From the NCBI GenBank assembly GCA_964609095.1, contig CAZSQN010000001.1, positions 130,354 through 194,353 on the forward strand: a stretch of 64,000 nucleotides of DNA, in the 5' to 3' direction. Of the stretch, positions 20,948-53,346 are shown in pieces. This stretch comes from an uncultured Gammaproteobacteria bacterium. GTDB taxonomy: Bacteria; Patescibacteriota; Patescibacteriia; CAZSQN01. The notes under the pieces were generated by a model that was not told the DNA's origin, did no database searches, and saw only the letters and a program-made list of their open reading frames with translations. The translations under genes and the position numbers were made by a program. Position 1 is the stretch's first letter. Each line of letters opens with the position of its first letter.

Positions 20948-21054
20948 ATTATTATAGTTGCGGCTGTTGTACAGACGCAAAAGCGAACGGCGGATGAGCG
21001 AAAGTGAGGGCGAATAATTGAGCCCGAACGGGAGCTAGTCCGGCAAGTGAGCTC
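20948..21054 (+). promoter_or_regulatory. Conserved structured leader motif, copy A (upstream of parA)
   Basis: ...tagttgc[hairpin]aaagcg..gagcgaaagtgaggg..cccgaacgggagc..gagctcATG shares boxes CGAAAGTGAGGG and CCCGAACGGGAGC with copies at 50697-50823 and 52785-52890. Confidence 0.6.
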
Positions 21055-21831
21055 ATGGCACACGTCATTGCGGTAGTTAACCAAAAAGGCGGAGTGGGCA
21101 AGACCACCACCGCCGTTAATCTTGGGGCATACCTTGCTTCGCTGGGAAGGTATGTGCTTTTGGTTGACCTTGATTCGCAGGCAAATGCCACAAGCGGCTT
21201 GGGCTGCGACCATCGCAATCTGGACAAGGGCGTATATGAAACAATAGTCGGTTTGGCGAATTTTCGCGACATTGTGAGGGAAACCGGCATTCCCGGGTTT
21301 CGTTTGGCTCCAGCCACTTCGGCTTTGGCCGGCGCCAATGTGGAATTGGTTAATCTTGCTGAACGCGAATTTCAGTTGCGCAACGCCATGTTGGAGATAA
21401 GGAACGATTATGATTTTATTTTGATTGACTGCCCGCCGTCATTGGGCGTGCTAACCATCAACGGTTTGGTGGCGGCTGACCGCGTGCTTATTCCGGTGCA
21501 GGCGGAGTATTTTGCGCTTGAAGGGTTGGGGCAGCTGCTTGAGACCATCGGTTTGGTAAAGCAAAATTTGCGTCCTGATTTGGAAATAATGGGCGCGGTC
21601 ATCACAATGTTTGAAGGACGTCTGCGGCTTTCTAACGATGTTTTGCAGGAATTGTACAAATATTTTCCCAATCAGATTTTCCGCTCCGTTGTTCCGCGAA
21701 GCGTGCGCTTGGCAGAGGCGCCGTCGCATGGCAAAACGATTATGAGCTACGACGGCGGCTCCAAAGGAGCCAAGGCGTATGAACGACTGGCGCGGGAAGT
21801 GGAGGAACACCTTCAAATTTCTAATTTTTAA
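21055..21831 (+). CDS. parA: Chromosome partitioning ATPase ParA/Soj
   Basis: KGGVGKTTTAVNL deviant Walker A; 258 aa. Confidence 0.9.
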   Translation: MAHVIAVVNQKGGVGKTTTAVNLGAYLASLGRYVLLVDLDSQANATSGLGCDHRNLDKGVYETIVGLANFRDIVRETGIPGFRLAPATSALAGANVELVNLAEREFQLRNAMLEIRNDYDFILIDCPPSLGVLTINGLVAADRVLIPVQAEYFALEGLGQLLETIGLVKQNLRPDLEIMGAVITMFEGRLRLSNDVLQELYKYFPNQIFRSVVPRSVRLAEAPSHGKTIMSYDGGSKGAKAYERLAREVEEHLQISNF

Positions 21832-21844
21832 TTTCTAATGTCTA

Positions 21845-22729
21845 ATGTCAGGTTTGGGTCGGGGTTTACAATCTTTGATACCGAGCAGAAAAGTTTTGCC
21901 GGCTGAAGCGTATAGAGCCGCGAGCGTGCCAAGCTCGTCTTTGGGGTTTTCCTCTTCGTCGGTAAGCCAGGCTGGGGCGCCGCTTCAAGCGCTGATTGAT
22001 AAAGTAAAACCAAATCCGCGCCAGCCGCGCGAGCATTTTTCGCACACGGCCATTGAGGAGCTGATCGCTTCCATAAAAGAGCACGGCGTGCTTCAGCCGT
22101 TGGTAGTTACCGCTAATGTTGACGGAACTTATGAGCTGATTGCCGGCGAGCGTCGGCTTCGCGCGGCAAAATTGGCGGGATTGGCAACCGTGCCGGTAAT
22201 TATCCGCACCGCCAATGAACAGCAGAAGTTAGAGTTGGCTTTAATAGAAAATCTTCAGCGTCAGGATCTTTCTCCGATTGAAGAGGCCAAGGCATTTAGA
22301 TTGCTTTTGGAGGAATATGATTTAACGCAGGAAGAAGTGGCCGGCAAGATGGGCAAGAGCCGCGGATATGTTGCGAACACGGTCCGTCTTTTAAATTTGC
22401 CGGAAGAGGCGCAAACGGCAGTCAGCAAAGGTTATATTACGGCAAGCAACGCGCGCACTTTAGCGGGTTTGGAGAGCGAAGCGGAACAGAAAAAATGGCT
22501 TCAAAAAATGATGAAAGAGGGAATGACGGCGCGTGAGGCGGAAAGAATGGTTACCAAAAAAAAGCGGGCAATGCTGCGCGATCCGCAAGTAGCCGCAGAC
22601 GAAGAAACGCTTCGCGAGGCGCTGGGCACGAAAGTGACTATTGAAAAAAAAGCAGGAAGAGGCATTATCGCCATCGGCTTTTACTCCGACGAAGAATATC
22701 GCGGGTTGATAAAGAGATTAAAAAAATAG
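21845..22729 (+). CDS. parB: Chromosome partitioning protein ParB/Spo0J
   Basis: ParB box LIAGERRLRAAKLAGL plus HTH region; follows parA. Confidence 0.9.
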   Translation: MSGLGRGLQSLIPSRKVLPAEAYRAASVPSSSLGFSSSSVSQAGAPLQALIDKVKPNPRQPREHFSHTAIEELIASIKEHGVLQPLVVTANVDGTYELIAGERRLRAAKLAGLATVPVIIRTANEQQKLELALIENLQRQDLSPIEEAKAFRLLLEEYDLTQEEVAGKMGKSRGYVANTVRLLNLPEEAQTAVSKGYITASNARTLAGLESEAEQKKWLQKMMKEGMTAREAERMVTKKKRAMLRDPQVAADEETLREALGTKVTIEKKAGRGIIAIGFYSDEEYRGLIKRLKK

Positions 22730-22756
22730 CCCCGATATTCTCGGGGCTATTTTTTA
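22727..22756. terminator. Bidirectional rho-independent terminator between parB and rel
   Basis: tagccccga-tattc-tcggggcta flanked by A6 and T7. Confidence 0.7.
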
Positions 22757-24240
22757 TTTTGTTCCGAAATTTTTTCTATTTTTTGCATCCAATTTGTCTT
22801 TGTCCGTTTTAAGGTGGCGCGGATTTTGGCGCGGGCGCCGGCTGTTTTTACAAACGCCAGCCAGTCGGGCGAAGGAGCTTTGCGGTTTTTATCAATCTGA
22901 ATTTCCACCACATCGCCCGAGCGGAGCGGCGTGTTTAGAGCCGTCAATTGGTCATTGATGCGGGCTCCCACGCATTTGTCGCCGATGTCCGAGTGGATGG
23001 CGTAGGCAAAGTCAATCGGCGTGGCGCGTTCCGGTAGATCAATCACGTCTCCTTTGGGCGTAAAGACGAAGATGCGGTTTTGGAACACGTCAATTTTTAA
23101 ACTGTCCAGCGACTCCAAAAATTGCTGTTTGTCTTGAAGGTCTTTTTGCAGCTGGGCCAGTTCTTTTACCCATTTGAGTTTTGGCTCGTCGCCTCGTCCG
23201 GCGCGCGTCTCATCATAGCCCCAGTGCGCGGCAATTCCGTATTCCGCTTCTTCTTGCATTTTTTCCGTGCGTATTTGGACCTCAATAATTTTTCCGTCCT
23301 CGGCAAAGACGGTGGTGTGAAGCGACTGATAGCCGTTAGGTTTGGGCTGGGCGATATAGTCCTTGATGCGGCCGCGCATCGGCTTCCAGAGACCATGGAC
23401 GATTCCCAAGACCGCGTAGCAATCGGCCACGTCTTTAACAATAATGCGGAGCGCTATAAGGTCATAGATTTTAGAAACATCCCGTTCGTGGCGCAACAGC
23501 TTTTGGTATAAGCTGTAAAGCCGTTTGGCCCGGCCGTAGATTTGCACGAATTTGATTCCTGCCTGATGCAGTTCCGTTTCCAGTTTTTTTGCCACTTTTT
23601 TAATATACCTTTCTCTTTCAATCAATTTTTCGGAAACGGCAGACACGGTCCATTTATATTCTTCAGGATAAACATATTTAAAGGCCGCGTCTTCCAAACG
23701 GCCTTTAATTTCAAACATTCCCAAGCGGTTGGCAATGGGAGCGTAGATTTCCAGCGATTCAAGCGCGATGCGCATTCTTTTTTCCGGCGGCAAGGCGGAG
23801 AGAGTTTCCAGATTGTGCAGGCGGTCGGCAAATTTTATAAAAATCACGCGCACGTCGTTGGCCATGGCCATAAACATTTTGCGCAGATTTTCAATGTAGC
23901 GCTCCGCTCCGCGGTATTTTAGCTTGCCAAGCTTGGTAATGCCGGAAACCAGCGTTGCCACCTCGGCTCCGAAATTTTTTTCAATCTCTTTTAGGGTAAC
24001 GGCGGTGTCTTCGGGAACATCGTGAAGCAAGCAGGCGATGATAATCACGCTCGGCATTTTCATATCGGCAAGAATCTGCGCCGCGGCAAGCGGGTGGGTG
24101 ATATAGGGTTCTCCCGAAGTCCGTTTTTGCCCTTTGTGCGCGGATTCGGCAAATTCATAAGTCAGCCGAATCATGGCGAGATCGGCTTTGGGATGGTACA
24201 TTTTTACGGTTTTAAGTATTTTTTCTATTCCTGCCGCCAT
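22747..24240 (-). CDS. rel: Short bifunctional (p)ppGpp synthetase/hydrolase Rel/SpoT homolog (HD + synthetase + TGS, no ACT domain)
   Basis: HD motif HDVPED, synthetase domain with YQSLHTTV, C-terminal TGS (RIFVFTPKGDVIDLP); 497 aa versus ~740 for full RelA. Confidence 0.85.
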   Translation of the reverse strand: MAAGIEKILKTVKMYHPKADLAMIRLTYEFAESAHKGQKRTSGEPYITHPLAAAQILADMKMPSVIIIACLLHDVPEDTAVTLKEIEKNFGAEVATLVSGITKLGKLKYRGAERYIENLRKMFMAMANDVRVIFIKFADRLHNLETLSALPPEKRMRIALESLEIYAPIANRLGMFEIKGRLEDAAFKYVYPEEYKWTVSAVSEKLIERERYIKKVAKKLETELHQAGIKFVQIYGRAKRLYSLYQKLLRHERDVSKIYDLIALRIIVKDVADCYAVLGIVHGLWKPMRGRIKDYIAQPKPNGYQSLHTTVFAEDGKIIEVQIRTEKMQEEAEYGIAAHWGYDETRAGRGDEPKLKWVKELAQLQKDLQDKQQFLESLDSLKIDVFQNRIFVFTPKGDVIDLPERATPIDFAYAIHSDIGDKCVGARINDQLTALNTPLRSGDVVEIQIDKNRKAPSPDWLAFVKTAGARAKIRATLKRTKTNWMQKIEKISEQNKK

Positions 24241-24318
24241 ATCAACATATTACCTTATCAGATTTTTCTCGTCAGGTCAATTTATCCAGCCCTTTTGGAC
24301 GAACCAAAAGGGCTGGAT

Positions 24319-24349
24319 TCAAAAACCCCGCCTTGTTAGCGGCGGGGTT
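24319..24349 (-). terminator. Rho-independent terminator downstream of topA (minus strand)
   Basis: aaccccgcc-ttgttagc-ggcggggtt, T5 on minus strand. Confidence 0.6.
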
Positions 24350-24357
24350 TATCAGAT

Positions 24358-26601
24358 TTATTGTTTGTTTCCCTCGCGCGAATAATCGCACTCCTTTTGG
24401 CTGCAGCGGATAACGCCTTTGGCGCCCAAAACCAGAAGCGAGCCGCAGGACGGGCATTCTTCTCCGGTGGGCTTGTTCCAAAGCGCGAAAGTGCATTTGG
24501 GATATTTGTCGCAGCCGTAGAAAATCCGTTTGCGCTTGGTGCGGCGTTCCACAAGGTCTCCGGTTTTGCAGGATGGGCACTTAACGCCGGTATTTAAGGA
24601 AATTGATTTTGTGTAATCGCATTCAGGATGTTTGGTACACCTGAAATAGGCGCCGAATCTGCCTTCTTTCGCCTCAAGCGGCGCGCCGCATTTTTCGCAG
24701 GGCGCGGTTGGCTTCGGCAGAGGAGTTTTGTTTTGGTTCTCATCTCCCGATTTGGGAAGCGGTTTGGTTTGCCGGCACGCGGGAAATCCGGTGCAGGCAA
24801 GAAATTTTCCGAAACGGCCCATCTTTACCACCATGGGCGCTCCGCATTTCTCGCATATCTGGTCGCTCGCCTCTTCGGTCAGGGCGCGTTTTGATATTTC
24901 TTTTTCTTTTTTTGTCAGGTTTTTTTTGAATGGCTCGTAGAATTCGCGCACGGCCGGCACCCACTCGCGCTCTCCCTCGGCGATTTCATCCAGCGAGTCC
25001 TCCATTTTTGCCGTGAATCCGTAATCCACAATTTGCGGAAAATGCCTGACCAAAAGATCGTTTACCAAAAAGGCGATTTCCGTAGGTTTTAACCGCCGGT
25101 TTTCAATCCGTTCCACATAACCGCGGTCAATGACGGTGGAGATGGTCGGCGCGTAGGTTGAAGGACGGCCGATGCCGTATTCTTCCAGAGCGTGGACAAG
25201 CGAGGCGTCGCTGTAGCGCGCCGGCGGTTCGGTAAAGTGCTGTTTTGGCTCAATTCCCGCGGCGCGCGCCGGAGTGCCGGCTTCAAGCGATGGGGGAAGC
25301 GCGGACTCTTTTTGCGCGTCGGGATAAATGCGCATATAGCCGTCAAAAGCAATCATTTGGCCGGTCGCCCTGAAAACATATTTTGGTTTGGCGCCGTCGG
25401 TTTCCACGTCAACCGAAGTTGACGAAAGAACCGCCTCGTTCATTTGCGAGGCGACGGCCCGTTTCCAGATAAGGTCGTAGAGCTTGTACTGCTGGTCGGT
25501 GAGGTAATCTCTTACTTTTTGCGGAGTGCGCGCGACTTCCGTCGGGCGGATGGCCTCGTGCGCTTCTTGGGCAAGTTTTGATTTGTTCAAATGGCGCCGC
25601 GGAGAAGACGGAGCGTAATCCCCGCCAAATTCTTTTTTGATGAAAGCGGCTGCTTCGTTTAAAAATTTTTCCGACAGATTGACGGAGTCGGTGCGCATAT
25701 AGGTTATGAGCCCGACTTGTCCCTCGCCCATAAGGTCTGTTCCCTCGTAGAGCTGTTGGGCAATCATCATTGTTTGTTTGGCGGAAAAATTAAGTTTGCG
25801 GTTGGCTTCCTGCTGAAGTGTGGAAGTGATAAAAGGCGCCGGAGGAGAGCGGCGGATTTCCTTTTTTTCAACCGAGGCGATGGTGTAATCGGTGTTTTCC
25901 AAATTTTTAAGAATTTTTTTGGCCTCATCGGCGTTTTTGACGGCAAGTTTTTCTAATATGGCGCCGTCTGCCTTGTGCAGGCGGGCCGGAAACGTTTCTT
26001 TGGTCGCCGGTAATTCAAAAACGGCTTCCAAGCTCCAATATTCTTCCGGAATAAATTTTTGGATTTCCCGCTCCCGTTCCACAATAAGCCGGACGGCAAC
26101 GGATTGGACCCTTCCGGCAGAAAGCCCCTTGGCCACTTTCTTCCAAAGAAAAGGCGAGAGCTCGTAGCCGACAAGGCGGTCAAGAACGCGCCGCGCTTGC
26201 TGGGCGCTGACCATATTTAAATCAATCTTGCGGGGATGAAGGAGCGACTCGCTGATGGCCTCTTTGGTTATTTCATGAAAGGTGATTCGCTTTATCTTTT
26301 TTGGCTCGGTTTTAAGCACTTCGGACAAGTGCCAGGAAATGGCCTCGCCTTCGCGGTCTTCGTCGGTGGCAAAGTATATTTCATCGGCTTTGGAGGCGCT
26401 TTTGGCAAGGTCGGTCGCGACTTTTTTGCTCGCGAGCGGCACGACGTATTTGGGAGTAAAGTTGTTGTCAACATCAACGCCAAGTTCCCGTTTTGGCAAA
26501 TCCCTGATATGGCCAAAAGATGATTTAACGACAAACTCATCACCCAAAAAACGGCCGATGGTTTTTGCTTTGGTTGGTGATTCTACGATGACTAATTTCA
26601 T
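24358..26601 (-). CDS. topA: DNA topoisomerase I
   Basis: Toprim MKLVIVESPTKAK start, catalytic core and several C-terminal Cys4 zinc ribbons; ORF-track start at 26634 over-extends into the hairpin repeat. Confidence 0.92.
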   Translation of the reverse strand: MKLVIVESPTKAKTIGRFLGDEFVVKSSFGHIRDLPKRELGVDVDNNFTPKYVVPLASKKVATDLAKSASKADEIYFATDEDREGEAISWHLSEVLKTEPKKIKRITFHEITKEAISESLLHPRKIDLNMVSAQQARRVLDRLVGYELSPFLWKKVAKGLSAGRVQSVAVRLIVEREREIQKFIPEEYWSLEAVFELPATKETFPARLHKADGAILEKLAVKNADEAKKILKNLENTDYTIASVEKKEIRRSPPAPFITSTLQQEANRKLNFSAKQTMMIAQQLYEGTDLMGEGQVGLITYMRTDSVNLSEKFLNEAAAFIKKEFGGDYAPSSPRRHLNKSKLAQEAHEAIRPTEVARTPQKVRDYLTDQQYKLYDLIWKRAVASQMNEAVLSSTSVDVETDGAKPKYVFRATGQMIAFDGYMRIYPDAQKESALPPSLEAGTPARAAGIEPKQHFTEPPARYSDASLVHALEEYGIGRPSTYAPTISTVIDRGYVERIENRRLKPTEIAFLVNDLLVRHFPQIVDYGFTAKMEDSLDEIAEGEREWVPAVREFYEPFKKNLTKKEKEISKRALTEEASDQICEKCGAPMVVKMGRFGKFLACTGFPACRQTKPLPKSGDENQNKTPLPKPTAPCEKCGAPLEAKEGRFGAYFRCTKHPECDYTKSISLNTGVKCPSCKTGDLVERRTKRKRIFYGCDKYPKCTFALWNKPTGEECPSCGSLLVLGAKGVIRCSQKECDYSREGNKQ

Positions 26602-26610
26602 AAAACGAAG

Positions 26611-26662
26611 CATGAAGCATGGAGCATGAAACAAATATGTGTTTCATGTTTCATGATACATG
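26611..26662. repeat. Inverted repeat hairpin of CATGAAGCA/CATGAAACA units
   Basis: catgaagcatggagcatgaaaca-aatatg-tgtttcatgtttcatgatacatg between dprA stop and topA start. Confidence 0.7.
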
Positions 26663-26664
26663 AT

Positions 26665-27765
26665 TTAACGCGAAAGCGCGTAGTGCATTCCTCCCATGTG
26701 CCTTACCGCGCCTCTCATCTCAAGGAGAGTAAGAGTAGCAGAAACTGTGGAAATGTCAAGCCCGCTCTCGCGGGAGAGCTCGTCAATGTGACGGCTGTCA
26801 TGGCGCAGAGAGAGCATTAAGGCCGCTTCTTCGGGTCCGGCCGGAATAAGCGGAGGAGAAACATGAATTTCCATATTTACTCCCAAAATTGAAGCGATGT
26901 CTTCGGAGCCGGTTACCAGCCGCGCTCCCATTTTTAGCAGGTTGTTTGAGCCGCGCGATGTTTCGGCCATAATGTTCCCGGGAACGGCGAAAACTTCCCG
27001 GTTATAATCAAGCGCGGCGCGGGCGGTGATAAGCGAACCGGAATCAAGGTCCGCTTCCACCACCAATGTGCCCAACGTTGCGCCGGCAATAATTCTGTTG
27101 CGGACGGGGAAATGGCTTTTGAAGCTTAAAGAGCCGGGGGGATATTCAGAGATTATCGCTCCTCCTTTATCTATAATCTCTTTGGCTAAGTTCTGGTTTG
27201 ACGCCGGATAAATTGAAGCGCTGTCGCAGCCGGAGCCGAGGACGGCCACGGTGTGGCCGGCGGCGCGAAGCGCGGCGCGGTGGGCAACAGTATCAATGCC
27301 CAAAGCCAGTCCTGAAAAAATGCTGATTTTGGCGGCCGCGAGCGGCGCCGTTATTTCTTCCGCCGCCCGTTTGCCGTAAGGCGTCATTTTCCGCGTGCCC
27401 ACCACCGCCAGAGGAAAACGAAGAGAAGAAAGCGAACCTCTTAAAAAGAGTATTTGCGGCAGGTCGGGTATTTCTCTTAAAAGCGCCGGATAGCCGGGGT
27501 CTTCCGGCAGAAGGATATTGATTTTTTCCGCGTTCAGTTTTTCTTCAAATTCGCTGATGTTTATGTTTTTCCTTTTTTCCAAAAAGATATTGGCTGCTTT
27601 TTCCTCCAGTCCGGCGGCGGTGAGCTCATGGCGCGAAGCGCGGAATACCTCCTCGGGGTCGCCAAAAGCGCGGCGCAGGCGGGCAAGGCGAACCGCGCCG
27701 ATTTGTTCAATTTGAGTAAGCGATGCCCAGAGAATTTTGTTTTTATCCGGATTTCCATTCGGCAT
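26665..27765 (-). CDS. dprA: DNA processing protein DprA (Smf)
   Basis: Rossmann-like DprA core (VVGTRKMTPYG...SGLALGIDTVAHRAAL...AVLGSG) plus C-terminal wH domain. Confidence 0.85.
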   Translation of the reverse strand: MPNGNPDKNKILWASLTQIEQIGAVRLARLRRAFGDPEEVFRASRHELTAAGLEEKAANIFLEKRKNINISEFEEKLNAEKINILLPEDPGYPALLREIPDLPQILFLRGSLSSLRFPLAVVGTRKMTPYGKRAAEEITAPLAAAKISIFSGLALGIDTVAHRAALRAAGHTVAVLGSGCDSASIYPASNQNLAKEIIDKGGAIISEYPPGSLSFKSHFPVRNRIIAGATLGTLVVEADLDSGSLITARAALDYNREVFAVPGNIMAETSRGSNNLLKMGARLVTGSEDIASILGVNMEIHVSPPLIPAGPEEAALMLSLRHDSRHIDELSRESGLDISTVSATLTLLEMRGAVRHMGGMHYALSR

Positions 27766-27937
27766 AATTGATTTCCATCATAAGTTATATCCGCCGGATT
27801 TGTACAGCGCCGATTTTGACTTTGGGGCAAAGATGTGGTAAGGTTTCCCCCAAAAGGCGGCGAGAGCTCTGTCGGCGTGCGCGGATGGCATACCCTCCAA
27901 ACCATTCTACGCGGGCCGGCAGAATTTTCGGCATCTT

Positions 27938-28216
27938 TTGAACGAAGGAGAAAAGAAAGAGATGGACAGGATAATGCAGGTCATTGTCGTTTCGCTCATT
28001 TTTTTGATAATGCTGGCTATCTTTGTCGGCATCAAATATGTCGTCGGCGAGCTTGGCTATAAAAATTTTGTTTTTGCTTTGGCCGTCATAGGAATTTTTT
28101 TCTGCGCGCGCGGACTTTATCAAGTGCGGCTTTCAAATGAAAATATCCGGCAGGAGCTGGAGAGGATGCGGTTGGAGCGCGACCGGCGCCGCCAAGACGA
28201 AGCTGACGATAAATAA
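27938..28216 (+). CDS. Small membrane protein with charged C-terminal tail
   Basis: 92 aa (or 84 aa from MDRIMQV); two hydrophobic helices then RQELERMRLERDRRRQDEADDK. Confidence 0.4.
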   Translation: MNEGEKKEMDRIMQVIVVSLIFLIMLAIFVGIKYVVGELGYKNFVFALAVIGIFFCARGLYQVRLSNENIRQELERMRLERDRRRQDEADDK

Positions 28217-28245
28217 AACCCCCATAGAAAGGGGGTTTATTTTAT
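28215..28245. terminator. Bidirectional terminator
   Basis: aaaaccccc-atagaaa-gggggttt with flanking A/T runs; between convergent ORF 27938..28216 and pth. Confidence 0.7.
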
Positions 28246-28764
28246 ATATTTATAAACCGTTTTTTTGACTTCGTCCATTATGGCCGGCAGTTCCGTCCCC
28301 TCCTTTTTAGAAAGTTCTCCAAGCACGAATTTTTTAGTTTCTTTTTTAACGGCCGGCGCGATGCCAACCTTGATTCTTGAAAAATTTTTTGCGCCCAGCG
28401 AGGATATCACCGACTCCACTCCTTTATGTCCCGCGCTGCCGCGATTTCTAACAAGCCGCGCCGCGCCCCACGGAAGGTCTATATCGTCATGGATAACAAG
28501 CAGGTCGGAAAGCGATATCTTATAATAAGAAAATAAACGGGACACCGCTTCTCCGGAAGAGTTCATAAAAGTAAGCGGTTTAGCCAGGATGATTTCTTCG
28601 TTTTGGCGTTTGCCTTTGGAAACAAGCGATTGAAATTTTTTATTTTCTTTGAATTCAGGCAATTCTAATTCTTGGCGTAAGGCATCCAAAGCCATAAAGC
28701 CGAGATTGTGGCGCGTGGTTTCATATTCTCTTCCCGGGTTGCCCAATCCTATGATTAGCTTCAT
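28237..28764 (-). CDS. pth: Peptidyl-tRNA hydrolase
   Basis: MKLIIGLGNPGREYETTRHNLGF signature. Confidence 0.92.
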   Translation of the reverse strand: MKLIIGLGNPGREYETTRHNLGFMALDALRQELELPEFKENKKFQSLVSKGKRQNEEIILAKPLTFMNSSGEAVSRLFSYYKISLSDLLVIHDDIDLPWGAARLVRNRGSAGHKGVESVISSLGAKNFSRIKVGIAPAVKKETKKFVLGELSKKEGTELPAIMDEVKKTVYKYIK

Positions 28765-28765
28765 A

Positions 28766-30106: not shown

Positions 30107-30110
30107 AAGA

Positions 30111-31544: not shown

Positions 31545-31831
31545 GTCTTCTCTGTCTCGCGTCTTTATCCCTTTTCTATATTATATCTGATTTATACCTG
31601 TTTTTTATCCACGGCGCAACCTTGTTAGAAGTTCTAAGCTGAAAGCTTAAATTTCGAACTCTTTACCTCGCAAATTGAGTGTGAAGATTAATTACAAAAC
31701 GATCTCTCCTTTGTAAGCGGGAGAGATTTTTTATTCTGCCGATATGCTGCCCTTGCTTAATCATTAGTTTCGTGTTATCTTCAATTAAAGAACTATCTTA
31801 AAGTATTGCTCGGCCGTGCGCCTGTTTTCTG

Positions 31832-31908
31832 GGACGATTAGCTCAGCTGGTTAGAGCGTCCCGTTCACATCGGGAAGGTCGCTGGTTCGAGTCCAGCATC
31901 GTCCACCA
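31832..31908 (+). tRNA. tRNA-Val (CAC)
   Basis: GGACGAUUAGCUCAGCUGGUUAGAGC...UUCACAU anticodon loop...GGUUCGAGUCC...ACCA; CCA encoded. Confidence 0.85.
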
Positions 31909-31920
31909 GAGATTTTTTTT

Positions 31921-32547: not shown

Positions 32548-32556
32548 GATATTTTT

Positions 32557-33942: not shown

Positions 33943-33992
33943 TAAAGTATTATTGTTAATACCTTATTGTTAAACCCTAAGGGAGGTGTCAC

Positions 33993-34241: not shown

Positions 34242-34295
34242 AAAACGGGTTTTGGCAGAAAACTTTTATGGCCGCGGGGTCCGGTTATCGGTTAT

Positions 34296-45719: not shown

Positions 45720-45794
45720 ATTATGAATAATGAATTAGGAATAAGGAATCGTTGAATCAAAAATTCATAATTCCTGATTCCTTATTCCAAAACA

Positions 45795-46664
45795 ATGACT
45801 GACGAATTACAATCGCAACCAATAGCTACGGAGACAATGCCGCCAGAAGCAGAAATAACGGCGATTAGGCGCAAGAAGCCGATTGTTTTGGGCTTGGTTT
45901 CCATCCTTTTAATTGTTATAATAGGAGGCGGAGTGATTTATTTTTTCAGAAATAAAATAGGCCTGCCCGGCAGGCCCGTTCCCTTGCCAAGGGTAATGGA
46001 AAAAATAGAAAATGGAAGAGCCCGCTGCACCGCGGCGCGGGATAAAGAAAAGTGTTTGTCTGAACTTACTTTGGATGAGGCGGTCGCCGGCAAGCAGGTT
46101 GCGGCTTGCGAAAAAGTGGCGGATGCTTCTTTGCGCGACGGCTGTTATGACACAATCGCGCGCGAACTCGGCGATGAGAAGATGTGTACCCGCGTTTCTC
46201 TGCCCGCTGCCGCTGATGATTGCGCCGGCGCCATAATTTTTGCCAAATCCAAAAAGTCAGACGATATGGCTTTGTGCGCGGCCATTGCTTCGCCGCGATG
46301 GCAAGACGGTTGTTATAGATTTATTTGGAGCGAACGGGGAACCAGAGAACTTTGCGAAACGGCTGGAGATAAGCGCGATCAGTGTCTTAATTTTATTATA
46401 ACGAGCGAAGCTGCGGGGAGCGGAGAGCCGGCATTGTGCGCTGAAATTTCCGTTGAAGAAGAACGGGTTGCTTGCGAAGAGCTTGCCAGCGAAGCCGCGG
46501 CCGAAACGGCTTCTGCCCGCGACGATGACGGTGACGGTCTTACAAATGCGGAGGAAGCAAGATACGGAACAAATCCAAATAATCCAGACACGGATGGTGA
46601 TGGATTTAAGGACGGGGACGAGGTAAAGGCGGGGTATAACCCAAAAGGACCGGGACGTCTATGA
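45795..46664 (+). CDS. Membrane-anchored protein with novel Cys-rich repeats and C-terminal thrombospondin-type-3 Ca-binding repeats
   Basis: 289 aa; N-terminal TM; about 5 repeats C-x7-9-(R)DGCY; C-terminus DDDGDGLTNAEE...DTDGDGFKDGDE...GYNPKGPGRL. Confidence 0.6.
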   Translation: MTDELQSQPIATETMPPEAEITAIRRKKPIVLGLVSILLIVIIGGGVIYFFRNKIGLPGRPVPLPRVMEKIENGRARCTAARDKEKCLSELTLDEAVAGKQVAACEKVADASLRDGCYDTIARELGDEKMCTRVSLPAAADDCAGAIIFAKSKKSDDMALCAAIASPRWQDGCYRFIWSERGTRELCETAGDKRDQCLNFIITSEAAGSGEPALCAEISVEEERVACEELASEAAAETASARDDDGDGLTNAEEARYGTNPNNPDTDGDGFKDGDEVKAGYNPKGPGRL

Positions 46665-46755
46665 TAGAATCTGGAATCTGGAATCTGAAATTTAGAATTT
46701 GAGGTTTAAATTAAAATTCTAAATTCTATATTCTAAATTCTATATTCTAAATTTT

Positions 46756-47442
46756 ATGTTCGAAAACACTCCGCCTAATTTACCAACCGCTAAAGAGCCG
46801 GAAGATATTTTTGGCGAAAAAAAATCGGCTCCAGCCGGAGCCGGAGCGCCGTCCGCGCCGGGAGCTCCATCTGCGCCGCCGCGTCCCGCTCCTCCGTCTC
46901 GTCCGCTAGTTCCTCCGCCTTTGACGCCGCCAGCCGCCCCCAAGCCGCCTGCGCCAGGAGCAGCGCCGTCTCGGGCAACTCCGGCAGCGGTTGAAAAGCC
47001 GTCAAAATCATGGAAAAGGGTGGTTTTATTTGTCGTTGTTTTGGCAGTTTTAGGCGGCGGAGGTTATTTTGCTCTGACTTATTTTGGTTTGTTGGGTCCT
47101 AAGAAGCCGGTTCCTTCGCCGGAAAAAGAAGAAACATTGCCGCCGCCTCCGCCCCCAGCGCCGGTTCAAGAAGAAACTCCGGCTCCGCCGCCTCCGCCCC
47201 CAGCGCCGGTTGATTCTGACGGAGACGGGTTGACCGATGAAAATGAGCAAAGCTTGGGCACTGACCCGCTTAAAGCCGATACTGACGCTGACGGACTTTT
47301 GGACAATGAAGAAGTGCGCATTTATAAAACAGACCCGTTAAATTCTGACACTGACGGCGATGGCTATAAAGACGGCGATGAGGTCAGAAATAGTTATAAT
47401 CCGAACGGTCCGGGCCGGCTTTTCCAAGTGCCGACACAGTAA
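46756..47442 (+). CDS. Proline-rich membrane-anchored protein with TSP3-like Ca-binding repeats
   Basis: 228 aa; Pro/Ala-rich N-term, one TM, PPPPPAP linkers, DSDGDGLTDENE...DTDADGLLDNEE...DTDGDGYKDGDE...SYNPNGPGRL C-terminus. Confidence 0.6.
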   Translation: MFENTPPNLPTAKEPEDIFGEKKSAPAGAGAPSAPGAPSAPPRPAPPSRPLVPPPLTPPAAPKPPAPGAAPSRATPAAVEKPSKSWKRVVLFVVVLAVLGGGGYFALTYFGLLGPKKPVPSPEKEETLPPPPPPAPVQEETPAPPPPPPAPVDSDGDGLTDENEQSLGTDPLKADTDADGLLDNEEVRIYKTDPLNSDTDGDGYKDGDEVRNSYNPNGPGRLFQVPTQ

Positions 47443-47519
47443 ATTGGAATAAAGAATTAAGAATTATGAATAATGGAAGTAGAATTCTTAATTCTTGATT
47501 CATAATTCATGATTCAAAA

Positions 47520-48548
47520 ATGATGGAACCGATTAAACCGCCATTAACTCCGTCTGCTCCATCCGCGCAGGCAATTTCCGAACCGGAGATTAAAACAATG
47601 CCCGAACGATTTATCGGCGCTCCTCTTAAAGCGCCTCCGAAACCGGTAGAAAAGGTTGTTGTGGTTGAAAAAGTAATAGAAAAAAAAGTTTTACCCCCGG
47701 CTCCTTTGCCTGTTGGTCTTAAAAAAGCGGGTTTTCCCAAGTGGGCAATAGCGGCGATACTTCTTTTAATAATCGGCGGCGGAGCAGGGCTTTGGTATGC
47801 GGTTTCATTAACTCCGGCCAAGCTGGTTGCGGTTACCCCGCCTCCTCCGCCGGCTCCATTGCCGCGCTGTTCCGACGGACTTGATAATGACGGCGACGGT
47901 TTGATTGATAATGCGGATCAGGGCTGCGAGAATCCAAGCGACAATGATGAAACTAATCTTCCGCCGCCCCCGCCGCCTCCGTCAGGCCCAAAGGCCGGCG
48001 CTGACAGCGATGCCGACGGTTTAACAGATGAAGAAGAAAAGGTTTATGGGTCCAATTTCCAAAATTCGGACTCGGATGGCGACGGATTTATTGATGGGGT
48101 AGAGTTGTTTCATCTGTATAATCCGGCCGGTCTGGCTCCGGTGCGTTTGATTGATACCGGTTCCGTCACGCTTTTTAAAGACCGTCTGGAGCGTTATCAA
48201 ATTTATTTTCCAAAACCATGGAGCGCTGTTGAAGCCCCGGACAGCAAAACAGCCGCTTTCCATTCTTTGGGAGAAGACGCGATGGAAGTTCTCGTGGAAG
48301 AAAACATTAACCGCCTTCCTATCACCAACTGGTATCTGGAGCGCAATCCAGGCGTCAAACCCGCGGAACTTGAAACATTTATAACCAAGAGTAATTTAGA
48401 CGGAGTAAAAAGCCCTGATCGGCTTACGGCTTATATCTCGGCCAACAGCTCGGTTTACGTCATCACCTACCGGCTGGGAGCCGATGAGACGATTAATTTT
48501 AGAAAAACGTTTGAGATGATGTTAAATAGTTTTACCCGATTGCGATGA
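47520..48548 (+). CDS. Proline-rich membrane-anchored protein with TSP3-like repeats plus extra C-terminal globular domain
   Basis: 342 aa; CSDGLDNDGDGLIDNADQGCENPSDNDE, DSDADGLTDEEE, DSDGDGFIDGVE, LYNPAGLAPVRL then about 140-aa domain; stop overlaps ybeY start (ATGA). Confidence 0.6.
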   Translation: MMEPIKPPLTPSAPSAQAISEPEIKTMPERFIGAPLKAPPKPVEKVVVVEKVIEKKVLPPAPLPVGLKKAGFPKWAIAAILLLIIGGGAGLWYAVSLTPAKLVAVTPPPPPAPLPRCSDGLDNDGDGLIDNADQGCENPSDNDETNLPPPPPPPSGPKAGADSDADGLTDEEEKVYGSNFQNSDSDGDGFIDGVELFHLYNPAGLAPVRLIDTGSVTLFKDRLERYQIYFPKPWSAVEAPDSKTAAFHSLGEDAMEVLVEENINRLPITNWYLERNPGVKPAELETFITKSNLDGVKSPDRLTAYISANSSVYVITYRLGADETINFRKTFEMMLNSFTRLR

Positions 48549-48970
48549 TTAAAGTAGAAATAAGCGGCTCATCAAAAATTTCATCCGCCGAAGTATTGAA
48601 GATAATCCGCAGAGCGCTTAAAGCCGCCGGCATAAAAGATGCGTACGTTTCTGTTGCTTTTATCACGTCGGAGGAAATTAAAAAATGGAACCGCCTTTAT
48701 AGAAAGAAGGCAAGAGCAACCGATATCTTGTCTTTTGGTTTTAACCGGGCAATGGGCGATGAAAAAAAATGGAAACGGGCAGGCGAGCTCTTGATCTGCG
48801 AAGCGGCGGCCAAAATTAACGCTAAAGAAAAACGCCATTCGCTTAAAAAAGAAATCGGAACTCTTTTGGTTCACGGCTCCCTGCATCTGGTCGGCTACGA
48901 TCATGAAGGCGAGAGGGAAGCGAAGACGATGTTTGCGTTACAGAACAAAATTATAATGAAACTAAAATGA
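48545..48970 (+). CDS. ybeY: rRNA maturation endoribonuclease YbeY
   Basis: HGSLHLVGYDHE metal-binding motif; 141 aa. Confidence 0.85.
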   Translation: MIKVEISGSSKISSAEVLKIIRRALKAAGIKDAYVSVAFITSEEIKKWNRLYRKKARATDILSFGFNRAMGDEKKWKRAGELLICEAAAKINAKEKRHSLKKEIGTLLVHGSLHLVGYDHEGEREAKTMFALQNKIIMKLK

Positions 48971-48974
48971 AAGT

Positions 48975-49343
48975 ATGAACAGAATGAGAAGGTTTGCGAG
49001 AAGCTTCAGATTTGCTTTTAAGGGTTTGATGACGGTTATAAAAGAAGAGCAGAGTTTTAGAATTCAGCTTTTTTCCGCTTTTGTCGTTTTGATTCTTTCT
49101 TTGGCGTTCCGCATCAGCAAGTGGGAAGCGGTCGCGCTCATTCTTGTTGCTTCTTCGGTACTTGTGTTAGAATTAATCAATAGCACTTTGGAGCGGGTTG
49201 TTGATTATATGAAACCGCGCCTTCATCATTATGTGGAAGCGGTTAAAGACATTATGGCGGCGGCGGTTTTGGTTGCGGCTGCGGCGGCGGCTGCGGTGGG
49301 AATAATTATTTTCTGGCCTTATCTTAAAGAATTGATTAAATAA
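48975..49343 (+). CDS. dgkA: Diacylglycerol/undecaprenol kinase DgkA family
   Basis: 122 aa, 3 TM; ELINSTLERVVDYM and VKDIMAAAVL motifs. Confidence 0.75.
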   Translation: MNRMRRFARSFRFAFKGLMTVIKEEQSFRIQLFSAFVVLILSLAFRISKWEAVALILVASSVLVLELINSTLERVVDYMKPRLHHYVEAVKDIMAAAVLVAAAAAAAVGIIIFWPYLKELIK

Positions 49344-49357
49344 AACACAAAATTGTT

Positions 49358-50602
49358 ATGGCAGGACAAGAATACATTGCCGGAATAGATATAGGATCAA
49401 CAGCGGTACGGATTGCCGTTGGGGTAAGGACGCCCGGATCTGAAAACAAAATGATAAATATAATCGGCCTGACAGAAGTGCCTTCCGAGGGAGTGCATAG
49501 AGGCATCATCAATTCCATTGATGATGTTGTTTCGTCTATTTCTATGTGCCGCGAGCGGCTGGAGAGAATGATCGGCGCTCCGGTAGACAGGGTTTGGGTC
49601 GGAATCTCCGGGCCGCAAATAGTCTCACAGACGTCCCGCGGATTTATTGCCGTGGCCAGAGCCGACGGAGAAATTCAGGAGGAAGACATGGAGCGCGCTA
49701 TTGAAGCGGCCAGGACCGTGCCGACGCAGTCAAATTATGAAATTATTCATGTTTTGCCAAAAAGTTTTACGGTTGACCGGCAGGCAGGCGTAAAAAGTCC
49801 GGTCGGCATGATTGGCACCCGACTTGAAGTTGACGCCGAAATAATTCAGGCGCCCATGGCGCAAAGAAAAAATTTAACCAACGCGATTTATCGGGCGCGT
49901 CTTGATATTGAAGATCTTGTTTACGCCCCTCTGGCCACCTCTGAAGCGGTGGCTAGCGACAGGCAAAAAAAACTCGGAACCGCGATGATAAATATCGGCA
50001 GCGGCACCACCTCGCTGATTGTTTTTGAAGAAGGGGATGTGCTGCATACGGCCGTGCTGCCGCTTGGCTCCGAACATATCACGGCTGATATCGGCATAGG
50101 ACTGCGCACCTCGCCTGATATTGCCGAAGAAATAAAAACAAAATTCGGCACAGCGGCTCCGGCGCAGGTGAATAAAAATGAAGAAATTAATTTGCGGGAT
50201 GTTGGCGCAAGTGAAGATGAATTTGTCAGCCGCCGGCACGTGGCGGAAATCATTGAAGCGCGAGTTGAAGAAATATATGAAAAGGTGGATAAAGAATTGC
50301 GCCGCATTGACAGAAGCGGCCTCCTTCCGGGGGGCGCGGTTTTAACCGGCGGAGGCAGCAAGCTGCCCGGCATGGTTGATCTGGCCAAAAGGACTTTGCG
50401 GCTGCCGGCTTCCCTTGGTTATCCGGCGGGAATAATGACGGTGACGGAAGCCGTTCACGATCTTTCTTTTTCAACCGCTGTCGGCTTGGTGCTTTGGGGC
50501 GACCGCGTAATAAATACTTCTCCTTCCGGCGGCTCTATGGGCGGCGGGTTTGGAAAAATTGCCAAAGGGCTGGGAAAACTTTTTGGATCGTTTCGGCCGT
50601 AG
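49358..50602 (+). CDS. ftsA: Cell division protein FtsA
   Basis: Actin-fold FtsA (YIAGIDIGSTAVRIAVG N-term, 414 aa); directly upstream of ftsZ. Confidence 0.85.
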   Translation: MAGQEYIAGIDIGSTAVRIAVGVRTPGSENKMINIIGLTEVPSEGVHRGIINSIDDVVSSISMCRERLERMIGAPVDRVWVGISGPQIVSQTSRGFIAVARADGEIQEEDMERAIEAARTVPTQSNYEIIHVLPKSFTVDRQAGVKSPVGMIGTRLEVDAEIIQAPMAQRKNLTNAIYRARLDIEDLVYAPLATSEAVASDRQKKLGTAMINIGSGTTSLIVFEEGDVLHTAVLPLGSEHITADIGIGLRTSPDIAEEIKTKFGTAAPAQVNKNEEINLRDVGASEDEFVSRRHVAEIIEARVEEIYEKVDKELRRIDRSGLLPGGAVLTGGGSKLPGMVDLAKRTLRLPASLGYPAGIMTVTEAVHDLSFSTAVGLVLWGDRVINTSPSGGSMGGGFGKIAKGLGKLFGSFRP

Positions 50603-50696
50603 AAGGCGATTGTCAGGCGGTGAATACTTTTTGTGTTCATCTTGTGGACTGTGCGCGTTGACACGGTTTTTTTAATTTAGGATAATCTAAAGGTCA

Positions 50697-50823
50697 TAAT
50701 TCTTTAATGTAGTTGCGTCCCGATAGTTTTCATCGGGATGCAAAGGAGAGCGAGACGCGCGCGAAAGAGAGGGCGAGCCCGATAAGGGAGAGCCCGAACG
50801 GGAGCGCGTGTCGGAAGCGAGCA
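50697..50823 (+). promoter_or_regulatory. Conserved structured leader motif, copy B (upstream of ftsZ)
   Basis: ataattctttaatgtagttgc + hairpin (tcccgat-agttttc-atcggga) + aaaggagagcgagacgcgcgcgaaagagaggg...cccgaacgggagcgcgtgtcggaagcgagcaATG. Confidence 0.65.
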
Positions 50824-52035
50824 ATGCCCGAAGTCAAACCGGAAATAGAAACGTTTGCAAAAATAAAAGTAGTCGGAGTCGGCGGCTCCGGCGGCTCTGC
50901 CGTAAATCGGATGGTTCAGGCAAAGATACGGGGAGTGGAATTTATTGCCTTAAACACGGATGTGCAAGCCCTGCATTATTCGCACGCGTCAACCAAGCTC
51001 CATATTGGAAAAACTGTAACGCGCGGGCTTGGCGCGGGAATGGACCCCGATCAGGGAAGGCGCGCGGCGGAAGAATCGCAGAACGAAATAAGAGACATAT
51101 TAAAAAGCGCGGATATGGTTTTTGTTACCTGCGGGCTTGGCGGCGGCACAGGGAGCGGCGCGGCTCCGATTGTGGCTGAAGTGGCTAAAGAGAACGGAGC
51201 CCTTGTCGTGGGAGTTGTCACCAAACCGTTTGCTTTTGAGGGAGCGCAAAGGCGCGAGATAGCGGAAAAAGCTCATGATTTGCTTCAAGACAGAGTTGAC
51301 GCGATTATCACCGTGCCCAACGACAGGGTCTTGCAAATTATTGATAAAAAAACAACCTTGCTTGAATCATTCCGCATTGTCGACGATGTTTTGCGCCAAG
51401 GCGTGCAGGGAATTTCGGAATTGATTACCGTTCCCGGTTTAATTAACGTTGACTTTGCCGATGTCAAGGCGATTCTGAAAGATTCCGGTTCGGCTCTGAT
51501 GGGCATTGGCCGCGGCACTGGCGAGAATCGCGCGGTTGAGGCGGCCAAAGCCGCCATTGCTTCGCCGTTGCTCGAGGTTTCTATTGACGGCGCAAAAGGA
51601 ATATTGTTTATCGTGACCGGCGGAACCAACATCGGCATGCATGAAGTTGCCGAAGCGGCAAAAATAGTCACCGGTTCATCCGACTCCAATGCCAAAGTTA
51701 TTTTCGGCACGGTGATTGATGAAAATATGAAGGAAGAAGTCAAGATTACCGTGGTGGCAACCGGTTTTGCCGACGGCAAGCCGGCAAACGCGGCGAGAAG
51801 TTTTGGCAATTATGTACCCACGGCGCTTCTTTCTAAAATGAGAAGCGACGCGAGCGCCGCCCCGGGGCTTTCTCTGGAGGGCTCCGCAAGCGTTGGTAAT
51901 GGGAATGGAAACGGCAATGGAAATGGGAAAAAACTTGAAATAAAAAAATCAATGAGCTCGCTTAAAACAGAATTGCCCAAAACCGAAGTCGAAGATCTTG
52001 AAATTCCGGCTTTTATAAGGAAGAAGATGCTTTAA
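50824..52035 (+). CDS. ftsZ: Cell division protein FtsZ
   Basis: GGGTGSG tubulin signature ([12 protein letters not shown]), start [21 protein letters not shown] at 50824 (ORF track 50713 start lies inside leader motif); GNGNGNGNGNG linker; C-terminal [11 protein letters not shown] FtsA-binding peptide. Confidence 0.93.
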
Positions 52036-52065
52036 AGAATTAATAAGCCGCGTTTATATTTATAT

Positions 52066-52425
52066 ATGGAAAACGATAAGATAATGCAAGATATTCTTGA
52101 GACAGTTATCTTTATAAAAGATAACGCTGTAACTAAAGAGGAATTTGAAACCCGTTTAGGCGGGGTAGAGTCGCGCTTGGATGGCGTAGAAACCCGTTTA
52201 GGCGGGGTTGAACAGAGATTGACCAAAATTGAAGCAATCATGGTTACCAAGGATTATCTTGATGATAAACTTGCAGATTTGAAAGGCGATCTCATCGTTA
52301 AACAACGGAAGATAGAAGACAGGATTAGTGCGCTGGTTTCCATGTTAAGCAACCGTAAGGTTTTGGAGCAAACTGATGTAAAATTATTGACCGATCTTCG
52401 CGTTTTTCCTCATATTACTGATTAA
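52066..52425 (+). CDS. Coiled-coil hypothetical protein (possible division-associated)
   Basis: 119 aa; repeated TRLGGVESRLDGVETRLGGVEQRL heptad-like segments; immediately downstream of ftsZ. Confidence 0.45.
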   Translation: MENDKIMQDILETVIFIKDNAVTKEEFETRLGGVESRLDGVETRLGGVEQRLTKIEAIMVTKDYLDDKLADLKGDLIVKQRKIEDRISALVSMLSNRKVLEQTDVKLLTDLRVFPHITD

Positions 52426-52495
52426 AACCAGTTAGAAAGATTGTTTGTGCCAAAATCCCGTCCAATCGGGGTTTTTGTCTTTATTGCACAAGAGC

Positions 52496-52524
52496 TTGAC
52501 AATCGTGGCTTAAGATGCTATTAT
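52496..52524 (+). promoter_or_regulatory. Consensus sigma70-type promoter TTGACA-N17-TATTAT
   Basis: -35 TTGACA 52496-52501, 17-nt spacer, -10 TATTAT 52519-52524. Confidence 0.7.
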
Positions 52525-52530
52525 TAGCGC

Positions 52531-52771
52531 AATCCGGCACAGTCGCAGGACACAACCGGACAAGAGCTAAGATATAACCATGCGGTTATTATCTGATGCT
52601 CAAGCAATAGTGAATAGTAGCGTTGACTGGCCAAGACGCGCTTGTGTCGAGCCCGGAACATTAAGTTCCGATTGCCCCTCCTGGCTATGCACGCCGAATC
52701 CGCTAATTGCTAAAGGAAAGAAGCTCGGTCGTGTGTTTGGCCCCACCTTTGTTGTGGGGCCACTTTTTTTT
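52531..52771 (+). ncRNA. Candidate small non-coding RNA (about 240 nt), identity unknown
   Basis: Bracketed by the consensus promoter and a strong terminator (tggccccac-ctttgtt-gtggggcca + T8, 52738-52771); only ORF (52580..52801) runs through the terminator; internal stems (ccgg...ccgg, cggaac-atta-gttccg). Confidence 0.45.
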
Positions 52772-52784
52772 ATGTATAATAAAG

Positions 52785-52890
52785 ATAATTCTTTAATGTA
52801 GTTGCATTCGTTGTACGAATGCAAAGCGGAGCGAGACACTCGCGAAAGTGAGGGTAAAACCCGAACGGGAGCGAGTGTCGGAAGCGAGCA
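52785..52890 (+). promoter_or_regulatory. Conserved structured leader motif, copy C (upstream of nrdR)
   Basis: ataattctttaatgtagttgc + hairpin (gcattcg-ttgta-cgaatgc) + aaagcggagcgagacactcgcgaaagtgagggtaaaacccgaacgggagcgagtgtcggaagcgagcaATG. Confidence 0.65.
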
Positions 52891-53346
52891 ATGCACTGTC
52901 CGGTTTGCAACAATAGAGATACCAAAGTCGTAGACAGCCGCATGGGAGGCGACGGCGCGTCAATTAGAAGAAGAAGGGAATGCGAAAAGTGCGGTTTCAG
53001 ATTTTCCACGCTGGAAGAAGTGGAGATTTTTGACCTCGCCATCATTAAACGCGACGGCAGGCGCGAAGCATACAGGAGAGAGAAAATAGAGGCGGGATTG
53101 AAGCTGGCGCTCCAAAAGCGGCCGTACACATCAAGCGACTTTCAGAATTTGGTTGCCGCCATTGAGCGCGATATACAAAAGAAACGTAAAACGGAAATCA
53201 CCTCAAAGGAGATTGGAGAAATCGTTATGCACCGCCTTAAGACATTTGATAAAGTGGCTTATATCAGATTTGCCTCGGTTTACCGCTTGTTTGAAGACGT
53301 AAAAACATTTGAAAAAGAACTTAAAAAACTTAAACATAAAAAATAA
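52891..53346 (+). CDS. nrdR: Transcriptional repressor NrdR
   Basis: MHCPVCNN zinc ribbon plus ATP-cone; 151 aa. Confidence 0.92.
   Translation: MHCPVCNNRDTKVVDSRMGGDGASIRRRRECEKCGFRFSTLEEVEIFDLAIIKRDGRREAYRREKIEAGLKLALQKRPYTSSDFQNLVAAIERDIQKKRKTEITSKEIGEIVMHRLKTFDKVAYIRFASVYRLFEDVKTFEKELKKLKHKK

Follow-up and report, generated by a model that had tools for sequence, protein, structure and literature searches.

A structured element repeated within one genome

In a stretch of 64,000 nucleotides from an uncultured patescibacterial genome (contig CAZSQN010000001.1 of assembly GCA_964609095.1; hereafter the window, 64 kb in all), the genes parA, ftsZ and nrdR are each preceded by a copy of the same short leader, which runs up to the ATG of the gene. 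These three copies had been pointed out in a first-pass annotation of the sequence, which placed them at 20948-21054, 50697-50823 and 52785-52890 and proposed that they form a structured RNA. Their positions and anatomy are as it described: ordered boxes are common to all three, mean column identity is 75%, and a covariance model gives them 101-117 bits (E of about 1e-26 to 1e-31 in the 64-kb window), against 15 bits for the best unrelated match in the window. The similarity among the three is far beyond chance. A search of the window with the covariance model added a fourth copy (18239-18348, minus strand, 79-96 bits), whose tail GGTAAGCGAGC stops 4 nt short of a tRNA-Met gene on the same strand. 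About 17.5 kb of additional flank from the same genome held no further copy. Two subtypes can be distinguished within the window: the nrdR and ftsZ copies are 85% identical, and the parA and tRNA copies 75%.

None of the 4227 models of Rfam 15 matches any window copy, even at E-values up to 10 in short sub-searches. Only tRNAs exceed the gathering threshold in the window, and no Rfam match overlaps the copies that we describe below in L001, L009, L012 and L026 (L-numbers, L001 to L040, denote contigs or loci fetched from other genomes). Literature searches by topic and by sequence words found no description of the element. The first-pass annotation likewise matched it to no riboswitch or RNA-motif class. 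It is apparently a family of structured RNA that has not been described before, though of a familiar kind, the structured cis leader.

A two-domain RNA fold

The element is about 90-125 nt long and folds into two domains: a variable hairpin, P1, and a rod in which helices P2 and P3 enclose an 8x8 purine-rich internal loop, with strand GAAAGnnA opposite GAACGnnA. The order of parts from 5' to 3' is the same in all copies: an AT-rich box, (A/G)AG, P1, a linker, the 5' strand of P2, GAAAGnnA, P3, GAACGnnA, the 3' strand of P2 and a tail. The stem of P1 is 8-11 bp long and shares no sequence from one subtype to the next, P1 as a whole taking at least five unrelated sequences and lengths; P2 measures 8-9 bp; P3 ranges from 3 bp with a 5-nt loop to a branched hairpin of 25 nt. 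Purine-rich single strands flank the rod, namely the linker AAG..(G)AGCGAG and the tail GGAAGCGAGC. The tail follows the pattern GG(A/U)AAGCGAGC and leaves 0-6 nt before the gene start, which is either a start codon or the mature 5' end of a tRNA or 5S rRNA. Across the nine copies collected from the window and from other genomes, GAAAG..A.G, GAACG..A and the G.AA of the tail are invariant.

Covariation was first measured on five copies, using a plain MAFFT alignment, a hand-drawn structure, 500 column shuffles and controls in which the pairing partner was slid by 1-3 columns. Cells were paired in 95% of cases and 14 of the 22 pairs showed double changes, two values that none of the 500 shuffles reached; sliding the partner lowered pairing to 27-42%. 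For all nine copies, in an alignment that was fitted to the covariance model, 93% of pair cells are paired and 17 of the 22 pairs carry double changes (0/500 shuffles). There are six G.U cells versus two A.C cells, an excess that favours RNA of the gene-sense strand, and single-sequence fold z-scores lie between -2.5 and -3.8. On the strength of the covariation, the G.U excess and the z-scores, the fold is real and works at the RNA level, P1, P2 and P3 all covarying; the RNA structure initially proposed from a single long-range helix is thereby borne out.

That helix is P2. It reads GACACTCGC/GCGAGTGTC in the nrdR copy and GACGCGCGC/GCGCGTGTC in the ftsZ copy, and the two differ, as annotated, by one U-A to G-C double change and one A-U to G.U change. 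For the parA copy the annotation had given GATGAGC/GCTCATG, a pairing that includes the start codon. The homologous long-range helix there is instead CGGATGAGC/GCTAGTCCG (8/9 pairs), and GATGAGC/GCTCATG is an alternative pairing specific to the parA copy.

Four other readings of the conserved segments were rejected. A dimeric transcription-factor operator at the P1 palindrome is at odds with the TTGC..GCAA spacing, which varies from 11 to 23 nt, and a coding function with copy lengths that differ by non-multiples of three and with the two copies lying 5' of tRNA genes. Inspection of both strands of the internal loop likewise disposed of a kink-turn, through a misfit of register: the non-bulged strand fits (GG-GA-GCG), whereas the other strand reads GAA-AG and not GAA-GA. 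Finally, the 5' loop strand GAAAG(U/A)GAGG might have acted as a STAB-SD or anti-Shine-Dalgarno sequence. Its duplex energies with the 3' tail of 16S rRNA (-9 to -14 kcal/mol) are no better than those of shuffled sequences, a fraction of 0.09-0.81 of dinucleotide shuffles being at least as good.

Promoters, leader boxes and access to the start codon

Promoter-like -10 boxes stand 5-25 nt 5' of the window copies. The ftsZ promoter and the extended -10 box of nrdR (Table 1) are conserved in relatives with and without the element, so the whole element would lie in the 5' untranslated region (UTR), in the 5'-proximal part of the transcript. Judged from these sequences, the element appears to be an inserted module that separates the promoter from the start codon and would form the 5' end of the transcribed RNA, which agrees with the short structured 5' leader of the first-pass annotation. 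The same annotation had taken ATAATT for the -10 box. This is unlikely, as better, conserved promoters sit 5-10 nt upstream of ATAATT at ftsZ and nrdR, and ATAATT lies in a box of the TAATTCYTNATT type; ATAATTCTTTAAT is part of this separate AT-rich leader box. Matches to TAATTCYTNATT are enriched in the window (21 observed vs 4.3 expected). The member of this family that immediately precedes P1 in the nrdR and ftsZ copies is probably outside the folded element.

The TAATTCYTNATT box occurs at window positions 45726-45786, 47448-47514, 50697-50708 and 52786-52797, and in relatives at L034 1590-1640 and L015 6450-6500. It is often found as inverted or direct repeats immediately 5' of start codons that have no Shine-Dalgarno sequence, and it makes up the parA and nrdR leaders of relatives without the folded element. 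The box is a second shared leader module.

The first-pass annotation also suggested that the structure could sequester the start region. The predicted structures leave the AUG of the nrdR and ftsZ copies mostly unpaired (unpaired probability 0.59-0.75); of the five mRNA-linked copies, three have values in this range. A low predicted value (0.15) is obtained only for the parA copy, where a local downstream hairpin would be the cause. Pairing of the AUG is not conserved among copies, and start-codon sequestration was rejected.

Upstream of nrdR, the interval 52496-52770 holds a strong promoter-like site, TTGACA-17-TATTAT (11/12 matches, with TG), and the intrinsic terminator at 52738-52770, separated by about 240 nt without a convincing open reading frame. 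The interval, which lies between a gene of 119 amino acids (aa) and nrdR, may encode a small RNA or a small protein.

Table 1. Coordinates of the four window copies, their parts and the associated promoter and box sequences
Feature	Position	Strand	Details
ftsZ promoter	50658..50686	+	TTGACA-17-GATAAT, 11/12 matches
nrdR extended -10 box	52773..52780	+	TGTATAAT; terminator 52738-52770 lies 5' of the box
AT-rich box 5' of P1	52785..52801	+	ATAATTCTTTAATGTAG; identical at 50696-50712; member of the TAATTCYTNATT family
nrdR-linked copy	52802..52890	+	followed by ATG 52891
nrdR copy, P1 hairpin	52802-52824	+	
nrdR copy, linker	52825-52834	+	AGCGGAGCGA
nrdR copy, P2 5' strand	52835-52843	+	
nrdR copy, 5' loop strand	52844-52851	+	GAAAGTGA
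nrdR copy, P3	52852-52862	+	
nrdR copy, 3' loop strand	52863-52870	+	GAACGGGA
nrdR copy, P2 3' strand	52871-52879	+	
nrdR copy, tail	52880-52890	+	GGAAGCGAGCA
ftsZ-linked copy	50713..50823	+	followed by ATG 50824
ftsZ copy, P1	50713-50743	+	longer hairpin
ftsZ copy, linker	50744-50753	+	
ftsZ copy, P2	50754-50762 with 50804-50812	+	
ftsZ copy, loop strands	50763-50770; 50796-50803	+	GAAAGAGA; GAACGGGA
ftsZ copy, P3	50771-50795	+	extended
ftsZ copy, tail	50813-50823	+	
parA-linked copy	20958..21054	+	divergent subtype; followed by ATG 21055
parA copy, P1	20958-20980	+	
parA copy, P2	20991-20999 with 21034-21042	+	one G.A mismatch
parA copy, loop strands	21000-21007; 21026-21033	+	
parA copy, P3	21008-21025	+	
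parA copy, tail	21043-21054	+	GCAAGTGAGCTC
tRNA-Met-linked copy (fourth)	18242..18340	-	directly 5' of tRNA-Met 18241-18165 (-)
tRNA copy, P1	18340-18318	-	
tRNA copy, P2	18306-18299 with 18264-18257	-	GACTGCAC with GTGCGGTC
tRNA copy, loop strands	18298-18291; 18272-18265	-	GAAAGTGA; GAACGAGA (partly degenerate)
tRNA copy, P3	18290-18273	-	weakened
tRNA copy, tail	18256-18242	-	GGTAAGCGAGCGCAC

Patchy distribution among relatives

Syntenic contigs were fetched from relatives whose FtsZ is 81-86% identical to that of the window. The element is absent at ftsZ in all six of them and absent at nrdR in four of six. L009 and L010 have it 5' of nrdR and none 5' of ftsZ. L012 has no element at ftsZ or in the nrdR leader and carries a near-identical variant between nrdR and the next gene, which encodes a membrane protein of 115 aa; nearly the same variant is thus found 5' of nrdR in L009 and 3' of nrdR in L012. 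No copy was found in L011, L013, L014 or L015. At parA, six relatives with ParA 87-95% identical (L034-L037, L039 and L040) have no copy 5' of the gene. A seventh, L038 (ParA 88% identical), carries a copy at 7107-7210 directly 5' of its second tRNA-Met gene, which starts at 7211; this site is orthologous to that of the fourth window copy, and L040 has no copy there.

The leaders of these relatives also contain other inserts. The ftsZ leader of L009 (9812-10002) harbours an unrelated AT-rich insert of about 190 nt with perfect 19-nt inverted repeats, TACCCCGCACACAACTTGC/GCAAGTTGTGTGCGGGGTA, whose 3' arm adjoins the ATG. In the nrdR leader of L013 (5250-5290), two TAATTC boxes enclose a 37-nt insert, CCCGCGAACGGGATCCCGCTTTGCGGTGATTGGTTCG. 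A word in this insert, CGAACGGGA, resembles the 3' loop strand of the element, but the covariance model gives no match, and the likeness may be that of a remnant or may be coincidental. To judge from such sequences, the leaders of this clade appear to be hotspots for various structured inserts.

When the window is compared with L009, third-codon positions of ftsZ are 48% identical, whereas the nrdR-linked element, P3 excepted, differs at only a few positions and is about 95% identical. The tRNA-linked copies of the window and L038, although orthologous, share only 50% identity, compared with 75% for the parA and tRNA paralogues within the window, which implies within-genome homogenisation or repeated installation at the same site. 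The tRNA-linked copy has kept P2 by compensatory changes relative to its closest paralogue. Among paralogues, stems are free to diverge with compensation and loops, linker and tail are kept, a pattern that, at the level of the sequences compared, indicates functional constraint and not recent copying.

Another conserved structure was observed close to the tRNA-linked site. Directly 3' of an initiator-type tRNA-Met lies a structured spacer of about 145 nt, at window 18400-18546 (-), L040 7780-8260 (-) and L034 1-420 (-). It ends in a duplicate of the tRNA 3' end (AAATCCCACCCCCGCAAC), contains GACGGGAUUUG, a word recalling the tRNA-like domain of tmRNA, has a fold z-score of -2.9 and matches nothing in Rfam.

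Distant homologues

Genome contigs and metagenomes were scanned by exact pattern, which yielded few homologues. The scan of genome contigs, with the pattern GAAAGNGAGGG..CCCGAACGGGAG, which was too strict, returned one true homologue, L001, together with seven chance or unrelated matches. L001 comes from a metagenome-assembled genome of Vicinamibacterales (Acidobacteriota) with 66% GC, which extends the element to two phyla. Its copy scores 92.7 bits and has all boxes intact, with P1 and P2 wholly recoded into GC-rich pairs. The genes on either side of it are convergent; an AT-rich, -10-like stretch is found on its 5' side and an 11-bp hairpin on its 3' side, and no credible gene lies downstream.

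The metagenome scan returned one probable homologue, L026, and 14 chance matches in GC-rich coding DNA. L026 is a low-GC contig whose copy scored 29 bits with the first model, compared with 12-17 bits for chance pattern matches. The P1 hairpin, the linker and both loop strands are present. The copy, which probably belongs to the family, occupies the 16S-5S spacer of an rRNA operon and stops 2 nt before the 5S gene. The contig (1-1442) is a fragment of this operon, which has the unusual gene order 16S-5S-23S, and its 16S gene carries about 100 extra nt close to the 3' end, as is typical for rRNA genes of the Patescibacteria-like kind.

Three scans of viral contigs and BLAST searches of phages and plasmids gave nothing genuine. 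A Sphingomonad repeat, GGGAGGGCTTCGACAAGCTCAGCCCGAACGGGAG (L003-L008, e.g. L003 1191-1322), which was among the unrelated matches of the genome-contig scan, was rejected: it fits the 22-nt pattern and not the fold (E = 0.58). Several copies of this repeat flank a small GIY-YIG nuclease gene in L003.

A proposed portable leader module and its alternatives

The genes that follow the copies are diverse: parA, ftsZ, nrdR, the membrane protein gene of L012, tRNA-Met in two genomes and probably 5S rRNA, with none credible at L001. This diversity argues for a generic rather than a gene-specific role. We tentatively favour the view that the element is a portable leader RNA under selection, which would act in cis and, through recognition by a trans-acting factor, affect the processing, 5'-end definition or stability of RNA. 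It would be the promoter-proximal leader of whichever gene follows, and the conserved internal loop with its flanking strands would be the docking site of a factor, protein or nuclease, that sets how the downstream RNA is processed, where its 5' end lies or how stable it is. Neither gene-specific sensing nor hiding of the start codon would be involved. RNase III processing signals of the T7 type (e.g. R1.1) offer a partial likeness. They too are portable hairpin rods with a central internal loop, stand immediately 5' of successive genes, are conserved in sequence among copies and, by analogy, suggest an action on RNA maturation whatever the gene; the modelled geometry of the rod is also compatible with that of such a signal (a coaxial rod of some 20 bp or more with an internal loop). 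The element differs from them by its 8x8 purine-rich loop, its extra 5' hairpin, its conserved single-stranded flanks and the lack of any phage link in our searches.

Several points weigh against this view. Only nine distinct copies are available, one of which, L026, came from a pattern pre-screen and scored only 29 bits before joining the model. No obvious gene lies downstream of the Acidobacteriota copy. Loop nucleotides of the copies at tRNA genes are partly degenerate (GAACGAGA, GAACGACA, GAAAGTTA), and these copies may be decaying relics rather than working ones. Abutment on gene starts could reflect compact intergenic regions, and the identity between species could stem from recent transfer instead of selection.

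The first alternative is a selfish or mobile small repeat of the MITE, REP, Correia or ERIC type, whose hairpins would serve its own propagation and which would land in leaders and merely be co-transcribed. Like the Correia (Neisseria), ERIC and BOX repeats, the element is multi-copy, patchy among close relatives and located between promoter and gene. Presence or absence at orthologous sites in relatives with such similar FtsZ or ParA, several copies per genome, the shift of one variant from the 5' to the 3' side of nrdR between L009 and L012, paralogues closer than orthologues, carriage in two phyla, and a clade whose leaders attract inserts such as the inverted-repeat insert of L009 would all be accounted for. 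We nevertheless consider this explanation unlikely. Comparison of filled with empty sites reveals no terminal inverted repeats or target-site duplications, and the ends of the element, (A/G)TAGTTGC... and ...GGAAGCGAGCA, are not inverted repeats. Copy number is low, and eight of nine copies are co-oriented with the following gene and end 0-6 nt from its start, the ninth being L001. Loops, linker and tail are conserved while stems diverge, which is a signature of constraint. The annotated genes of the region of about 81 kb include no transposase, integrase or Y1-transposase domain, and the searches of phage, plasmid and viral collections found no copy of the element.

An independent small RNA, released by RNase P at tRNA genes, in the course of rRNA maturation at the spacer or through endonuclease cleavage of mRNAs, and acting in trans or as part of a ribonucleoprotein (RNP), is improbable. 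The copies between two tRNA genes and, probably, between 16S and 5S do occupy sites from which discrete RNAs are normally excised, and the Acidobacteriota copy, with its -10-like sequence and 3' hairpin, resembles a stand-alone unit. Most copies, however, are fused to mRNA start codons without a terminator or a known processing site, and several divergent copies per genome would be unusual for a trans-acting housekeeping RNA.

Loop nucleotides that are highly conserved even across phyla, framed by variable, covarying, aptamer-like helices and located in 5' UTRs, might also suggest a riboswitch or a protein-operated translational operator, whose internal loop would control initiation by binding a metabolite or a regulator. 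There is a likeness to orphan structured leader motifs of the Weinberg/Breaker type, candidates in Rfam that come from comparative genomics: they are short 5'-leader RNAs with conserved junction or loop nucleotides, covarying hairpins of variable length and a sparse spread across phyla. The element differs from them in that it matches nothing in Rfam 15, also stands 5' of stable RNA genes (two confirmed copies at a tRNA gene and a probable one at 5S rRNA) and has no conserved expression platform: no U-tract terminator follows it, neither Shine-Dalgarno sequence nor AUG is sequestered, and the 3' tail is conserved as sequence, not as a pairing partner. Moreover, the downstream genes have no common pathway and indicate no ligand. 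This explanation is decidedly improbable.

A leader acting at the level of transcription, of the put or nut (boxA-boxB) type, in which the nascent transcript would alter RNA polymerase so that it antiterminates, or assists folding, on whichever gene follows, is very improbable. Similarities to the rRNA and lambda nut and HK022 put sites can be drawn, if only by analogy: those are promoter-proximal structured RNAs that act on any downstream gene, and they occur in rRNA spacers and tRNA operons. Nut-like sites occur in the rrn operons of E. coli. The element likewise lies directly 3' of promoters, 5' of tRNA genes and probably in an rRNA spacer. A word 5' of P1 in three of the nine copies, UUCUUUAAU, has UCUUUAA in common with the E. 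coli boxA (UGCUCUUUAACAA), which can serve as a lead only, and some copies without UUCUUUAAU have weaker CCUUrAA-like words. Yet six of the nine copies have this boxA-like word in weak form or not at all; there is no consistent boxA, and the word belongs to the general family of AT-rich leader boxes. Neither sequence nor fold resembles the known sites, no downstream terminators needing override were identified, and a function at polymerase level would be purely hypothetical.

Hardly credible, and largely contradicted, is the coordinated cell-cycle regulon that the first-pass annotation saw in parA, ftsZ and nrdR, operated by start-region sequestration: three of the four copies in this genome do precede partitioning, divisome and deoxynucleoside triphosphate (dNTP)-control genes and the AUG of the parA copy is predicted to be paired, but the reading fails because even close relatives do not keep this set of genes under the element, with ftsZ and parA lacking it there, and because copies stand 5' of stable-RNA genes (tRNA-Met in this genome, probably 5S elsewhere). 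In addition, folding predictions leave the AUG accessible at nrdR and ftsZ, and GATGAGC/GCTCATG pairs only in the parA copy.

Implications

In kind the element is close to the orphan leader motifs, and in behaviour to the T7 RNase III sites or the Correia repeats; as far as the defining features of these systems could be tested, it does not conform to any of them. On a bolder view it would be functional RNA of a new class, defining or marking where mRNAs, tRNAs and 5S rRNA begin in unrelated phyla, either as a self-processing RNA or as a docking site for a dedicated nuclease or RNP, and would amount to a natural insulator leader; or else it would imitate a site of the rRNA precursor and so allow a single factor to couple ribosome biogenesis to the expression of division, partition and dNTP-control genes. 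We consider this bolder view quite unlikely.

Because the leaders of this clade are built from interchangeable modules, caution is advisable when regulons are inferred from leaders shared within a single genome. Synthetic biology could also make use of the element as a small leader part of natural origin. Patescibacterial genomes are tiny and encode few regulators that can be recognised, and the RNA biology of the group has hardly been explored. A constrained, portable element present in at least two phyla would provide a new handle on how RNA 5' ends are made and stabilised in these organisms.

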